This document shows, piece by piece, positions 2,412-6,337 of a stretch of DNA of 6,434 bases (within the stretch, counting starts at the first letter, position 1; every line of letters starts with the position of its first letter). Below the pieces are notes generated by a model. That model was not told the origin of the DNA and did not search any database. It saw only the letters and a list, made by a program, of their open reading frames with translations. This stretch comes from a virus (taxonomy: Duplodnaviria; Heunggongvirae; Uroviricota; Caudoviricetes): IMG/VR virus record IMGVR_UViG_2703719368_000016; one strand, 5' to 3'. A program made the translations under genes and the position numbers.

Positions 2412-3374
2412 TCACCCCCTGAATCCCGGCGGTATTTCAGTGTCCGGTTCAGAAATGTGATTCACGCAACGCTGCGCGGGCGAACGCCCCAGGCGGATAA
2501 CCAGTTCATCCCATTTTTCCCGGAGTTTTGCCGGACTCATGATGTTTTTTACCCAGAACGAATCCCGCTGGAGACGCCCAAACATTTCACAAATTTGTCT
2601 GTGAGTTCTGCCATCCAGCATCCGCATTGTCCGCACGTCATTGGCCCATGCAGTCCAGTTGGGTTCTTTCGGTCTCGTGATCTCGCCATCATCGCTGGCC
2701 GCCTGCTCGTAAAGACTCACGATTCGTCCCCAGATCCACTGTGCGCACACCAAATCTTCCTGACTTCCCCACTGGCGTTTTTTCGCACTGAACACAACCG
2801 CGTCAGGGTGTCGGGTTAAAAAATTCTGTTCAGCCGTCTGCGGGTCCGGTTGCGAAGCGTCCGGACAAGAAGATCTTTTATCTGACGGATCAGGTTTTAA
2901 TACTGACGGATCGGGGTCAATCATCGCCCCCCTAATCGGCAGTTTGTTATCAACAGTTGATCCATCAAAATTTGACGGGTCAACCGTTGAGGGGGCAATA
3001 TTTGACGGGTCAACTGTTAACGGGTCATTTTTTGCCGGGCTAATTTTTCTTTTCGGTTTATATGACTCACGCGCCGCCGCAGCAGCTGCTTCGAGTTTTT
3101 CCACATTAAGCCGATAGATATTGCTTACATTACGCCCACCGACCTTACGCTCTTCCTTCGTCAGCCAGCCCTCTTTCGCCAGTTCTGCAATAGCCGATTT
3201 CACTGTGGATTCACTTCTTGCACCGATCTGACGCCGGATAGTTTCAATGGCAGGCCATGACACGCCCTCGTCATTGCTGTAGTCTGCAAGACGGGCCATA
3301 ACCGCCACCCTGGATAAGATCATGCCGGTGAAGGCGCACCCTTCCCAGACAAGACCATGAAGCTTGCTGCTCAT
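2412..3374 (-). CDS. Phage replication initiator: N-terminal winged-HTH DNA-binding domain, Pro/Asp/Ser-rich linker, C-terminal domain
   Basis: The track ORF starts at GTG 3389; I prefer ATG 3374 (MSSKLHGLVW...) with GGGGG just upstream. The N-terminus (LADYSNDEGVSWPAIETIRRQIGARSESTVKSAIAELAKEGWL) matches the HTH pattern of phage replication initiators. The linker encodes TVDPSNIAPSTVDPSNFDGSTVDNK from the DNA iterons. It sits directly upstream of the DnaC-like gene. Confidence 0.75.
   Translation of the reverse strand: MSSKLHGLVWEGCAFTGMILSRVAVMARLADYSNDEGVSWPAIETIRRQIGARSESTVKSAIAELAKEGWLTKEERKVGGRNVSNIYRLNVEKLEAAAAAARESYKPKRKISPAKNDPLTVDPSNIAPSTVDPSNFDGSTVDNKLPIRGAMIDPDPSVLKPDPSDKRSSCPDASQPDPQTAEQNFLTRHPDAVVFSAKKRQWGSQEDLVCAQWIWGRIVSLYEQAASDDGEITRPKEPNWTAWANDVRTMRMLDGRTHRQICEMFGRLQRDSFWVKNIMSPAKLREKWDELVIRLGRSPAQRCVNHISEPDTEIPPGFRG
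2950..3066. repeat. Origin-like iteron cluster with adjacent AT-rich tract, embedded in the initiator gene linker
   Basis: Three near-palindromic sites TCAACnGTT(G/A)A at 2950-2960, 2980-2990 and 3010-3020, exactly 30 bp apart. Two 20-bp direct repeats TTTGACGGGTCAAC(C/T)GTT(G/A)A at 2971-2990 and 3001-3020. An AT-rich stretch follows at 3028-3066 (ttttttgccgggctaatttttcttttcggtttatatg). This parallels lambda ori lying inside gene O. Confidence 0.5.
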
Positions 3375-3396: not shown

Positions 3397-3822
3397 TTAG
3401 TGCATCACCACAGCATTCCCTGCCGGGCCGCCGCGATTCATCTGGTCATACAAAACAACCGCTGACGCAACAAAATCATCGACATCCTTCACCAGCCGAT
3501 CCCTCCGTTCGACGATCTCACGGTAATATTCAGAACTGTGGCTGCGCATACGGGCCACCAGCAAAGGCGGCATCGCCTTTTCGATCGCCGGTAACAGAGC
3601 CTGCATTTTTTCAACAGCATCAGGGGTGTCTTTATCCAGCCAACGGAAAATTTTCTGGGTATTACGGGCCAGGGCTTCCGGATGGCTGTCGTCATACAGT
3701 TCCGGGAACGTCATTCCCAGCTCGAAATACGCTTTGGTAATTTTCGCAGCCGGTACTTTTTCGCCGTCCGGATGCGCCCAGACATTCATCGCCATGCGGA
3801 TGTGTTCATGCTTGATTTTCAT
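3397..3822 (-). CDS. ydaT: YdaT-like protein (reported CII-like regulator of Rac/CP-933P-type prophages), 141 aa
   Basis: Complete ORF, N-terminus MKIKHEHI..., C-terminus ...VVMH. Its ATG (3822-3820) overlaps the stop of the upstream Cro-like gene in an ATGA arrangement. Family assignment is from memory of YdaT and from gene order, not from a search. Confidence 0.6.
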   Translation of the reverse strand: MKIKHEHIRMAMNVWAHPDGEKVPAAKITKAYFELGMTFPELYDDSHPEALARNTQKIFRWLDKDTPDAVEKMQALLPAIEKAMPPLLVARMRSHSSEYYREIVERRDRLVKDVDDFVASAVVLYDQMNRGGPAGNAVVMH

Positions 3823-4121
3823 GAATCAACTCCATCAGATAAGCATGCACTACAATCACCTTCAGCATGAACTACATGTGTTTGCCCCAAACGAATGCCG
3901 CTCGCATACTCAGGCCAAATAAGCTCCCAATCATGGGGTCGTAGCTCCGCCCTACTTACTTGGCCTTCCGTCGCAGATTCGATCATAAGGGCGCGGGTTG
4001 GAGATATAGCTGTTCGTCCAGACGCCATTTGCGATAAGTAAGATGGCGATACACCAAGTCTGGCCGCGAATTTCTTAGCATCACCAACCCTTAATGATTT
4101 AATAAACTCTTTTAATGTCAT
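3819..4121 (-). CDS. ydaS: Cro-like HTH regulator of the YdaS family, 100 aa
   Basis: ATG at 4121-4119 with GAGGAAGG RBS (revcomp of 4123-4130). HTH segment AKKFAARLGVSPSYLSQMASGRTAISPTRAL followed by an ELRPhDW motif as I recall for YdaS. Divergent from the repressor gene across an operator-rich intergenic region. Confidence 0.65.
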   Translation of the reverse strand: MTLKEFIKSLRVGDAKKFAARLGVSPSYLSQMASGRTAISPTRALMIESATEGQVSRAELRPHDWELIWPEYASGIRLGQTHVVHAEGDCSACLSDGVDS

Positions 4122-4218
4122 ACCTTCCTCGGTTTAGTGTTTTTTTGCGAGTTTAGTGTTTAATAAACCATTAAGTCAAGTATTTGCTTGTTTAGTGATT
4201 ACTAAAGATAATTACCAC
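4122..4218. promoter_or_regulatory. Divergent promoter/operator region (OR-like): PR-like promoter for the cro-like operon, PRM-like promoter for the repressor, repeated operator motifs
   Basis: GTTTAGTG at 4132-4139, 4151-4158 and 4190-4197. Near-palindromes GTTTAATAAAC (4158-4168) and TTTAGTGATTACTAAA (4191-4206). Minus strand: TTGACT (plus 4174-4179), 18-nt spacer, TAAACT (plus 4150-4155). Plus strand: TTGCTT (4184-4189), 17-nt spacer, GATAAT (4207-4212), ending 6 nt before the repressor ATG. Confidence 0.55.
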
Positions 4219-4590
4219 ATGCAAAAAAAAGAAATTCGCCGTTTACGTCTCAAGGAGTGGTTTAAAGATAAAACTCTGCCACCCAAAGAGAAGAGCTACC
4301 TATCTCAACTAATGAGTGGGAGAGCCTCGTTTGGAGAAAAGGCTGCCAGAAGAATAGAGCAAACATACGGGATGCCGGAAGGGTATCTGGATGCGGAATA
4401 CGCAGAACAACCGGGGGGTTCTCCACCACATGCAGGGTTAACGTCTAATCAACTGGAATTATTGCAGATTTTTTCAGCCTTCCCTGAGGATGAGCAACGC
4501 CAGATAATCAGCGAGTTAAAGCAGAAAAAAGAATCAATGGAAGATCTCATAGCGAGATGGATTGCGGCGCAAAAATGCCGCCGCGCCTGA
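4219..4590 (+). CDS. paaR2: CI-like prophage repressor, short form (123 aa) with N-terminal HTH and no S24 peptidase domain; PaaR2-like
   Basis: The track ORF starts at GTG 4156 with no RBS; I prefer ATG 4219 (MQKKEIRRLRLKEWF...), which sits right after a -10-like GATAAT and so implies a leaderless mRNA. HTH: KEKSYLSQLMSGRASFGEKAARRIEQTYGMPEGYLD. The C-terminal part is too short for a LexA-type autocleavage domain. Symbol given from recalled architecture, unverified. Confidence 0.65.
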   Translation: MQKKEIRRLRLKEWFKDKTLPPKEKSYLSQLMSGRASFGEKAARRIEQTYGMPEGYLDAEYAEQPGGSPPHAGLTSNQLELLQIFSAFPEDEQRQIISELKQKKESMEDLIARWIAAQKCRRA

Positions 4591-4610
4591 GTTATAAAAC
4601 CGGAGGAAAC

Positions 4611-4802
4611 ATGAATAGAGCCCTTTCACCAATGGTTTCTGAATTTGAAACCATTGAACAAGAAAACAGTTACAACGAATGGCTGCGTGCGAAAGTAGCA
4701 ACGAGCCTTGCAGATCCGCGCCCAGCAATTCCCCATGACGAAGTTGAGCGCAGAATGGCAGAACGCTTTGCTAAGATGCGCAAGGAACGGAGCAAGCAGT
4801 AA
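4611..4802 (+). CDS. paaA2: Type II antitoxin, 63 aa, partner of the ParE-family toxin; PaaA2-like
   Basis: ATG 4611 with GGAGG RBS at 4602-4606 (the track's 4557 start would overlap the repressor gene and has no RBS). Product MNRALSPMVSEFETIEQENSYNEWLRAKVATSLADPRPAIPHDEVERRMAERFAKMRKERSKQ. Stop TAA 4800-4802 lies one nucleotide before the toxin ATG. Confidence 0.75.
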   Translation: MNRALSPMVSEFETIEQENSYNEWLRAKVATSLADPRPAIPHDEVERRMAERFAKMRKERSKQ

Positions 4803-4803
4803 A

Positions 4804-5082
4804 ATGTTACCCGTGTTATGGCTTGAAAGCGCAGATACCGACCTAGATGATATAACTAGTTATATTGCTCGTTTCGACATAGATGCGGCTGAACGCTTAT
4901 GGCAGCGATTAAGGGGTTGTGTGCTGCCGTTATCCGAACATCCGTATTTATACCCACCAAGCGACAGAGTACCTGGCTTGCGTGAGATTGTAGCCCACCC
5001 TAACTATATAATTCTATACCGCGTAACAACATCAAGCGTTGAAGTAGTAAACGTGATCCACGCAAGACGCCAGTTTCCCTAA
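4804..5082 (+). CDS. parE2: ParE/RelE-superfamily toxin, 92 aa; ParE2-like
   Basis: ATG 4804, in frame with track ORF 4708..5082 but placed immediately after the antitoxin stop. The C-terminus ...HPNYIILYRVTTSSVEVVNVIHARRQFP matches the conserved ParE/RelE motif (Y-R-I/V ... I-x-R-V/I-x-H-x-R-R). The small, tightly coupled antitoxin-then-toxin order is typical of type II TA operons. Confidence 0.8.
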   Translation: MLPVLWLESADTDLDDITSYIARFDIDAAERLWQRLRGCVLPLSEHPYLYPPSDRVPGLREIVAHPNYIILYRVTTSSVEVVNVIHARRQFP

Positions 5083-5100: not shown

Positions 5101-5147
5101 ACATAACAACCGCAACGACTTTATCAAAAGCGTTGTGTTTGTTATGT
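5101..5147 (+). terminator. Long imperfect hairpin just after the toxin stop; possible terminator or insulator between the repressor-TA operon and the downstream promoter
   Basis: ACATAACAACCGCAACG (5101-5117) pairs with CGTTGTGTTTGTTATGT (5131-5147): a 17-position stem with one mismatch and one G-U, 13-nt loop. It is followed by cccgcgGTTTAGTTTTTA, U-rich but not a canonical adjacent U-tract. Confidence 0.35.
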
Positions 5148-5151
5148 CCCG

Positions 5152-5200
5152 CGGTTTAGTTTTTACTTGACTTAAGTTTAATGTTTATTAAACTAAAAAT
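5152..5200 (+). promoter_or_regulatory. Second operator/promoter copy (OL/PL-like, or PdicB-like) directing rightward transcription
   Basis: TTGACT (5167-5172), 16-nt spacer, TAAACT (5189-5194): the same hexamers as the PR-like promoter. Operator-like GTTTAGT at 5154-5160 and GTTTATTAAAC at 5183-5193, the latter the exact reverse complement of GTTTAATAAAC at 4158-4168. The block 5175-5194 matches 4150-4169 at 17 of 20 positions. Confidence 0.45.
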
Positions 5201-5489: not shown

Positions 5490-5565
5490 NNNNNNNNNNN
5501 NNNNNNNNNNNNNNNNNNNNNNNNNNNNNNNNNNNNNNNNNNNNNNNNNNNNNNNNNNNNNNNNN
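5490..5565. other. Run of 76 N (assembly gap or masked sequence)
   Basis: Literal n characters in the sequence. Any ORF crossing it is unreliable and true spacing is unknown. Confidence 0.99.
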
Positions 5566-5719: not shown

Positions 5720-5938
5720 ATGCAGAAACGAGAACCCGTCATCATCGCGCCAGACTATACCGATGATGAACTTTATGAGTGGATGCACCAGAAAATTAAT
5801 GCAGCGCAGGATCTGAAATGGGCCAATGAAGCCAGGGCTAAGCAGGCTGAAAATCTGTCCGCTCTGGAGCAGGATATCACCAATCTGGAAAAAGCAGCGG
5901 CATTAAGCATTGCCAGAATGATTACATACCCGCGTTAA
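5720..5938 (+). CDS. Small acidic, probably helical protein (72 aa); positionally like the small ORFs (ydfC-like) that precede dicF in Qin-type dicB operons
   Basis: ATG 5720 with AAGGAG RBS at 5708-5713. Product MQKREPVIIAPDYTDDELYEWMHQKINAAQDLKWANEARAKQAENLSALEQDITNLEKAAALSIARMITYPR. It lies between the PL-like promoter and the DicF-like RNA. The ydfC comparison rests on size and position only. Confidence 0.55.
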   Translation: MQKREPVIIAPDYTDDELYEWMHQKINAAQDLKWANEARAKQAENLSALEQDITNLEKAAALSIARMITYPR

Positions 5939-6279: not shown

Positions 6280-6337
6280 TTTCTGGTGACGTTTGGCGGT
6301 ATCAGTTTTACTCCGTGACTGCTCTGCCGCCCTTTTT
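6280..6337 (+). ncRNA. dicF: DicF-like small RNA with intrinsic terminator (the prophage sRNA known to repress ftsZ translation)
   Basis: The sequence TTTCTGGTGACGTTTGGCGGTATCAGTTTTACTCCGTGACTGCTCTGCCGCCCTTTTT matches my recollection of E. coli DicF. GGCGG (6295-6299) pairs with CCGCC (6327-6331), followed by a T5 run at 6333-6337. Context fits: downstream of a repressor-controlled rightward promoter and a small ORF. Ends are approximate. Confidence 0.55.

Follow-up and report, generated by a model that had tools for sequence, protein, structure and literature searches.

The CI-like repressor gene paaR2 of the cryptic prophage CP-933P is translated from a leaderless mRNA, in which the first base of the start codon, A4219, is also the first base of the transcript. 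This start was put forward in a sequence-only reading of the stretch analysed here (6434 bases, hereafter the window), and the proposal is correct. It is also already known, because it was demonstrated experimentally and published in 2021 by Jurenas et al. (mBio 12:e02947-21, PMC8630535), who studied the locus in EDL933; what is cited from that paper below refers to the accessible part of its text. We hold it to be very nearly certain that the promoter PRM933P starts the paaR2-paaA2-parE2 mRNA at A4219, that paaR2 is leaderless, that an upstream in-frame GTG at 4156 goes unused, and that this layout extends through the family of related switches.

Window positions 4100-4620, used as a 521-base query, are 100% identical to E. 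coli O157:H7 EDL933, and are present in 593 of 5426 complete E. coli genomes, nearly always as a single chromosomal copy. Phage Evi carries the same region with 98.4% identity. In the window we recognise the immunity and replication region of the cryptic lambdoid prophage CP-933P (Sp12) of E. coli O157:H7; its repressor gene, paaR2, encodes the CI-like regulator of the operon paaR2-paaA2-parE2. The genes are as follows.

4219-4590, plus strand: paaR2, CI-like repressor of 123 aa beginning MQKKE; start supported by 5' RACE, N-terminal sequencing and mass (PMC8630535), and by RefSeq, phage Evi, PDB and homologues.
4611-4802, plus strand: paaA2, antitoxin (Pfam PaaA2, 1e-19), with its own Shine-Dalgarno sequence GGAGGA, -9.5 kcal/mol.
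4804-5082, plus strand: parE2, toxin (Pfam ParE_toxin, 1.9e-16), Shine-Dalgarno duplex -5.8 kcal/mol.
3819-4121, minus strand: ydaS, Cro-like repressor (Pfam YdaS_toxin/HTH_3), with a canonical Shine-Dalgarno sequence, GAGGAAGG, -8.6 kcal/mol.
3397-3822, minus strand: ydaT-type gene.
2412-3374, minus strand: O-like replication gene.
Minus strand of the window: DnaC-like ATPase gene.

The succession of regulator, PaaA2-family antitoxin and ParE-family toxin is the gene order of PaaR-PaaA-ParE three-component toxin-antitoxin systems. The PaaR2 protein matches no Pfam family, and its kinship with CI comes from homologue searches and the PDB. An S24 peptidase domain, the mark of autocleavable LexA/CI repressors, is not found by Pfam in the 123 residues of PaaR2. 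PaaR2 represents a non-cleavable branch, and relatives with which it has the N-terminal domain in common, at 56-80% identity, do carry PF00717.

Several further elements are seen in the window. A full-length DicF small RNA lies at 6281-6332 on the plus strand (Rfam RF00039, 76.7 bits, where the gathering score is 48), 3' of ydfC (5720-5938), which is the ydfC-dicF-dicB arrangement of Qin/Rac-type prophages. Inside the O-like gene, at 2950-3039, five overlapping repeat copies with a 15-nt period (TCAAC.GTTGA / TTTGACGGG motifs) look like origin iterons, comparable to those of the lambda O gene. The adjacent minus-strand ORFs 870-1538 and 1460-1639 are a single DUF1627 gene marked as frameshifted in the RefSeq record of EDL933; a T/A homopolymer at about 1521-1528 is the likely site of the frameshift, which fits a decaying cryptic prophage.

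The elements of PRM933P and the start codon are arranged on the plus strand as listed below.

4184-4189, plus strand: -35 hexamer TTGCTT, identified from the sequence, 3/6 matches to TTGACA; consensus of homologous loci TTGCTT, 1.63 bits/position.
4190-4206, plus strand: spacer of 17 nt, identified from the sequence.
4207-4212, plus strand: -10 hexamer GATAAT, identified from the sequence, 5/6 matches; CAAAAT/CACAAT occupies the same register in 23 other loci, 1.51 bits/position.
4213-4218, plus strand: linker TACCAC of 6 nt between the -10 hexamer and +1/ATG, conserved in length and not in sequence (24 linkers in 24 loci, 0.17 bits/position).
4219-4221, plus strand: paaR2 start codon ATG; A4219 is both the PRM933P transcription start and the first base of the start codon.

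The geometry reported in the sequence-only reading (TTGCTT, 17 nt, GATAAT, 6 nt, ATG 4219) is exact. Being the seventh base past the -10 hexamer, A4219 sits at the usual +1 position. In E. coli, initiation on leaderless mRNA has a strong requirement for AUG; the start codon here is ATG, as it is in 34 of 34 stacked related loci. A consensus promoter scan of the window that demands at least 4/6 matches per hexamer does not list PRM933P, since its -35 hexamer has only 3/6 matches to TTGACA, and a weak -35 is expected of an activator-dependent promoter of the PRM type. The poor -35 and the miss in the scan mean that the sequence by itself is not decisive. The same two features, together with the overlap of the -10 hexamer with an operator half-site by one base, would accommodate the idea that the hexamers near the ATG arose by chance from the AT-richness of the operator DNA and that transcription begins elsewhere. 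A looser scan of both strands of the window (-35 at least 3/6, -10 at least 5/6, spacer 16-18) returns 8 distinct sites, among which only PRM933P has both a TTG-type -35 and, 6 nt downstream, an ATG at the head of a long ORF; the chance of one such site is roughly a few percent over the dozen gene starts of the window. A chance origin is ruled out by the conserved geometry in related loci, where the -35/-10/ATG register is kept in 34 loci of two Proteobacteria classes while the linker sequence varies, and by the published 5' RACE, which puts +1 at the start codon. A PRM933P-gfp fusion is, moreover, active and regulated (PMC8630535). We consider the chance reading extremely improbable, the published 5' RACE and promoter fusions having refuted it, and retain PRM933P as the promoter.

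PRM933P is part of a divergent regulatory block, whose operators and promoters are listed here.

4151-4168, plus strand: operator palindrome GTTTAGTGTTTAATAAAC, 18 bp, found by pattern search; overlaps the PR -10 and contains GTG 4156.
4190-4207, plus strand: operator palindrome GTTTAGTGATTACTAAAG, 18 bp, found by pattern search; occupies the PRM spacer and shares one base, the first, with the -10.
4150-4179, minus strand: PR933P, the divergent lytic promoter for ydaS-ydaT, TTGACT/18/TAAACT; promoter scan, and 5' RACE and gfp fusions (PMC8630535).
5167-5194, plus strand: PL933P, TTGACT/16/TAAACT; promoter scan, and gfp fusions (PMC8630535); its hexamers are those of PR933P.
5154-5193, plus strand: OL-type operators, the distal operator set of the same switch, found by pattern search.

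The operator pattern has 5 matches against 0.01 expected, and two further copies are located at the PL-type promoter. Back-to-back PR and PRM promoters sharing repeated operators within a 97-bp intergenic region, and a further set of operators at a PL-type promoter past the end of the repressor operon, are both features of a lambdoid CI/Cro switch. In the published work, four evenly spaced 18-bp inverted repeats are described as operators, and DNase I footprints of PaaR2 and of YdaS cover the intergenic region and both promoters (PMC8630535). At low levels PaaR2 activates PRM933P and represses PR933P, while at high levels it represses PRM933P, as does YdaS; with the PRM933P-gfp fusion this appears as an approximately 4-fold apparent activation at basal PaaR2 and as repression on induction. 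PL933P is repressed by PaaR2 and by YdaS, and YdaT activates a PRE-type promoter between ydaS and ydaT (PMC8630535).

Ahead of the OL/PL block, just past the stop codon of parE2, we also note a hairpin at 5101-5147, with 22-nt arms that are 82% complementary and a 3-nt loop. A clear T-run is missing on its plus strand; the hairpin may serve as a terminator, or insulate the paaR2 operon from PL933P. Downstream of PL933P, part of the region is masked by 76 N at 5490-5565; at this place EDL933 has a small minus-strand gene annotated as 'ECs_2282 family putative zinc-binding protein'.

The leaderless message itself has been demonstrated by several experiments (PMC8630535). The 97-bp region between paaR2 and ydaS was predicted to contain PRM933P and PR933P, and 5' RACE on EDL933 RNA placed the +1 of PRM933P at the predicted translation start of PaaR2 (n=5 clones). 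When the paaR2 ORF was placed at the araBAD +1 (pBAD), the protein had the same size in a Western blot as the product of the native promoter. N-terminal sequencing of PaaR2 gave MQKKE, and the intact mass of His-tagged PaaR2, 15,081 Da, was as expected. Because the N-terminal sequencing used the engineered construct with +1 at the paaR2 ATG, it proves that a leaderless message is translatable, not that all native transcripts are leaderless; in the accessible part of the paper, PaaR2 from the native promoter was compared by size only. Thus 5' RACE, N-terminal sequencing and mass spectrometry, which the sequence-only reading had named as checks, were already published, and their outcome is the predicted one. 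Database records agree, since the RefSeq and phage Evi records start the paaR2 CDS at ATG 4219, and the chains of the N-terminal domain in PDB 7NKV, 8C3K and 8C3L ("Phage repressor protein CI") begin with MQKKE.

These data bear directly on the other candidate start, GTG 4156, from which some automatic gene calls begin the gene; the product would be a 144-aa protein made from a leadered mRNA.

4156-4218, plus strand: open in-frame stretch from GTG 4156, non-coding, PR/PRM operator and promoter DNA.

The frame is indeed open from 4156, and metagenome gene callers gave 144- and 150-aa versions (P0001, P0002). Against this start stand the 5' RACE +1, which lies downstream of 4156, the MQKKE N-terminus and a mass that fits 123 aa plus the tag (PMC8630535). 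The GTG also lies, as had been pointed out from the sequence, inside the operator/promoter block, within GTTTAGTGTTTAATAAAC (4151-4168) and adjoining the PR -10, and its Shine-Dalgarno match is only weak (-2.5 kcal/mol). In 25 of 33 tabulated related loci there is no in-frame ATG, GTG or TTG upstream before the nearest stop, with many stops 0-8 codons upstream, and residues seemingly shared among the extended proteins, such as TKDN, are translated operator and -10 DNA (ACTAAAGATAAT). Initiation at GTG 4156 on PRM transcripts is refuted by the published data (PMC8630535), and we give this start practically no credence; translation begins at 4219.

The start at ATG 4219 also stands apart from its neighbours in the window when Shine-Dalgarno strength is scored as the duplex energy of positions -20 to -1 with the 3' end of 16S rRNA. 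ATG 4219 has no Shine-Dalgarno sequence by this score (-0.9 kcal/mol), and the ydaS, ydaT, paaA2, parE2, ydfC, O-like, dnaC-like and DUF977 genes have values of -5.8 to -10.7 kcal/mol. Within paaR2-paaA2-parE2, only the paaR2 cistron is leaderless, while paaA2 and parE2 possess their own Shine-Dalgarno sites. This qualifies the remark in the sequence-only reading that leaderlessness affects how translation of the repressor and of the toxin-antitoxin genes responds to the state of the ribosome. The leaderless paaR2 cistron is upheld, but the toxin-antitoxin half is not, because paaA2 (-9.5 kcal/mol) and parE2 (-5.8 kcal/mol) are served by their own sites and any effect of ribosome state on the pair would be indirect.

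PaaR2 could also be made from a second transcript. A substantial share of the protein may come from leadered PRE933P transcripts, which run antisense through ydaS and contain ATG 4219 as an internal start; this route would add to the leaderless PRM route and not replace it. YdaT raises PRE933P to about the basal level of PRM933P (PMC8630535), and lambda also uses a two-promoter logic. A YdaT site, TTGATTN6AATCAA, is found at 3812-3829 (plus strand), at the junction of the ydaS stop and the ydaT start; this perfect inverted repeat (1 match against 0.04 expected) agrees with the YdaT recognition sequence described in PMC9986795; presumably PRE933P is activated through it. An extended anti-Shine-Dalgarno pairing with AGUGAU is available about 19 nt upstream of ATG 4219, with only -6.2 kcal/mol and at a poor distance. 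On the other side, such transcripts offer ATG 4219 no usable Shine-Dalgarno sequence at a normal distance, and PaaR2 represses ydaT in the maintenance state. A substantial contribution from PRE933P is possible but doubtful.

In the course of events that results, RNA polymerase at the weak maintenance promoter PRM933P (TTGCTT/17/GATAAT) starts the transcript at A4219. As the transcript begins with the A of the start codon, the paaR2 cistron has neither a 5' UTR nor a Shine-Dalgarno sequence, and GTG 4156, which is upstream of +1 and inside the PR/PRM operators, is unused. Translation of paaR2 proceeds through recognition of the 5'-terminal AUG to give the 123-aa repressor MQKKE..., probably by initiation of 70S ribosomes as in lambda cI, and paaA2 and parE2 on the same mRNA are translated from their own Shine-Dalgarno sites. 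By the same analogy, paaR2 initiation may have sensitivities like those of lambda cI. The layout of -10, 6 nt and ATG would be a conserved trait of the family of switches built on the PaaR2-type DNA-binding domain. To this picture the present analysis adds direct observations of a hexamer geometry identical to that of lambda, the lack of a Shine-Dalgarno sequence, the operators and a register conserved throughout the family.

The conservation was examined in PaaR2 relatives, 156 of which were found by protein search. Short full-length relatives of 117-135 aa occur in Photorhabdus, Xenorhabdus, Providencia, Serratia, Salmonella and others; others are S24 LexA-type repressors of 208-215 aa, with which only the first ~60 residues are common (56-83% identity). 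Nearly all of 29 aligned proteins start at the Met that corresponds to M1 of MQKKE; in a few gene calls that are longer, the added N-terminus is conserved promoter DNA read as protein, of which the TKDN residues mentioned above are an example. A scan of one genome per species gave 62 usable loci, the fragment L065 being left out. Stacked on the start codon, the 62 loci comprise three classes by the distance from -10 to ATG, with 5 of them outside these classes.

Enterobacterales (many), Burkholderiales, Nitrosomonadales, 37 loci: -10 to ATG 5-7 nt (6 nt in 34, 5 nt in 2, 7 nt in 1); Shine-Dalgarno mostly absent.
Pasteurellales/Orbales (Gilliamella, Mannheimia, Rodentibacter, Haemophilus, Aggregatibacter, Pasteurella), 10 loci: -10 to ATG 19-29 nt; Shine-Dalgarno strong.
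Photorhabdus/Xenorhabdus, 10 loci, of which 8 were measured: -10 to ATG 54-56 nt; no clear Shine-Dalgarno.

The Pasteurellales/Orbales loci retain a TTGCTT/17/TAAAAT promoter and the operator, followed by a short leader. Their Shine-Dalgarno energies are -6.5 to -10.7 kcal/mol in the 8 of 10 loci that were scored, and GGAGAG is seen by eye in two Haemophilus loci. A Shine-Dalgarno sequence is thus present where the ATG is off +1 and mostly absent where it is at +1, which is the pattern expected if the 6-nt class is leaderless. Judged by their sequence, the related loci with the 6-nt geometry are probably leaderless as well. The 5-7-nt class contains both short and S24-type repressors, and seven Burkholderiaceae loci in it have TAAACT as the -10. 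The automatic promoter picker took PR-side hexamers in L027 and L042, and missed the Burkholderiaceae loci (no TTG -35) as well as L055 and L056; these were placed by eye in the ungapped stack. Most related loci have a YdaS-type divergent ORF 59-103 bp upstream.

For 24 loci of the 5-7-nt class, whose linkers are all different, the ungapped stack gives the following information content.

-35 hexamer: 1.63 bits/position.
Spacer (operator): 1.22 bits/position.
-10 hexamer: 1.51 bits/position.
6-nt linker: 0.17 bits/position.
ATG: 2.00 bits/position.

A linker of fixed length whose sequence drifts freely is what one would expect to see if the ATG is required at +1. Because of common ancestry among the related loci, the counts cannot be taken as independent, and the argument rests on the conserved register as against the diverged linkers. 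Two other signals were considered and rejected. Purine-rich linkers in a few loci (GGGAGG, AGGAGG, AGAGGT, TGGAGA) do not qualify as canonical Shine-Dalgarno sequences, since they directly adjoin the ATG, leaving no spacing, and would be upstream of the predicted +1, though they could have a role on read-through transcripts. An A at +4 is not a shared leaderless signal, as this position holds C in paaR2 and, for the most part, G in the family.

That the layout is kept across many prophages suggests selection, and this layout probably serves a function and is no mere accident of lambda. We think it likely that the leaderless layout is a conserved, selected property of the whole module, consisting of a YdaS-type cro, an operator/promoter block of ~60-100 bp and a PaaR2-type DNA-binding domain, across prophages of Gamma- and Betaproteobacteria and with either a short or an S24 C-terminus, and that the start moved off +1 at least once, in Pasteurellales/Orbales, where a strong Shine-Dalgarno sequence is present. 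If this is true, these loci form a natural series in which to ask why leaderless mRNAs are so common among maintenance repressors, and which host feature allows or forbids this. The family-wide layout, the Shine-Dalgarno replacement in one host group and the table of Shine-Dalgarno energies are a modest extension of the published work (PMC8630535).

A few loci deserve separate mention. In the Photorhabdus and Xenorhabdus loci L003-L009 and L018 (~1930-2000), TTGCTT/17/CACAAT and the operator are kept, the ATG is 54-56 nt further on, and it is preceded by AT-rich DNA (…TTCTTATAAATAAA ATG) with no clear Shine-Dalgarno sequence (-3.1 to -5.6 kcal/mol); these loci have either a leader without a Shine-Dalgarno sequence or a second, proximal promoter, for which TATAAA, 4 nt before the ATG, is a candidate. 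In Morganella psychrotolerans (L014, ~1991-2015), the spacing of -10, 6 nt and ATG is kept, and a one-base frame shift is found in the A-run after the start codon, ATGAACATAAAAAAATATTCGG. Possible reasons for the shift are an error in sequencing, a pseudogene or a tract prone to slippage; paaR2 has an 8-A run at 4223-4230. The PaaR2-type domain, operators and YdaS-type cro are combined with a short non-cleavable or an S24 C-terminus in L021-L030, L036, L039, L042, L048, L051, L053, L054 and L061-L063, and, judging from these sequences, switch and induction modules appear to have been recombined.

For the paaR2 locus the question is closed, and the main use of the result is the correction of automatic annotations that start at GTG 4156. 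PaaR2, which keeps both the CP-933P switch and the ParE2 toxin operon in the 'immune' state, is expressed independently of a Shine-Dalgarno interaction.

Among known systems, the closest is the CP-933P paaR2 locus of PMC8630535, which is the same sequence (100% over 4100-4620), with no difference at the locus. In the telomere phage PY54, RACE detected a single leaderless mRNA species starting at the AUG of the prophage repressor (PMC4488713). The cro gene of PY54 is also leaderless, in contrast to ydaS here, which has a clear Shine-Dalgarno sequence and a leader, and the PY54 repressor family is unrelated to PaaR2.

The comparison with lambda cI, drawn already in the sequence-only reading, is borne out by the lambda record NC_001416, where PRM reads TAGATA/17/TAGATT/TAACGT (6 nt)/ATG, so that the spacing equals that of PRM933P at every step. 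Owing to its leaderlessness, translation of lambda cI withstands some inhibitors of initiation, kasugamycin among them, and depends on ribosome composition, rising in a uS2-deficient rpsB background. There are differences between the two systems. PaaR2 lacks the S24 autocleavage domain of lambda cI, CP-933P has four 18-bp inverted repeats (PMC8630535) where lambda has three operators, and the co-transcribed genes are a ParE toxin-antitoxin pair in CP-933P and rexAB in lambda. Base +4 is C in paaR2 but A in lambda cI; a cryo-EM study reports that this A stacks on A1493 in the initiation complex (PMC10491246, accessible part). The likenesses concern the promoter, the message and the regulation. 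Both systems have divergent PR and PRM promoters, shared operators and a weak -35; both coding starts are A-rich (AUGAGCACAAAAAAG versus AUGCAAAAAAAAG), and neither message has predicted structure in at least its first 19 nt. Like lambda cI, PaaR2 activates its own promoter at a low repressor level and represses it at a high level (for PaaR2, PMC8630535), and both lambda and CP-933P have a second, activator-dependent and leadered route to the repressor from PRE.
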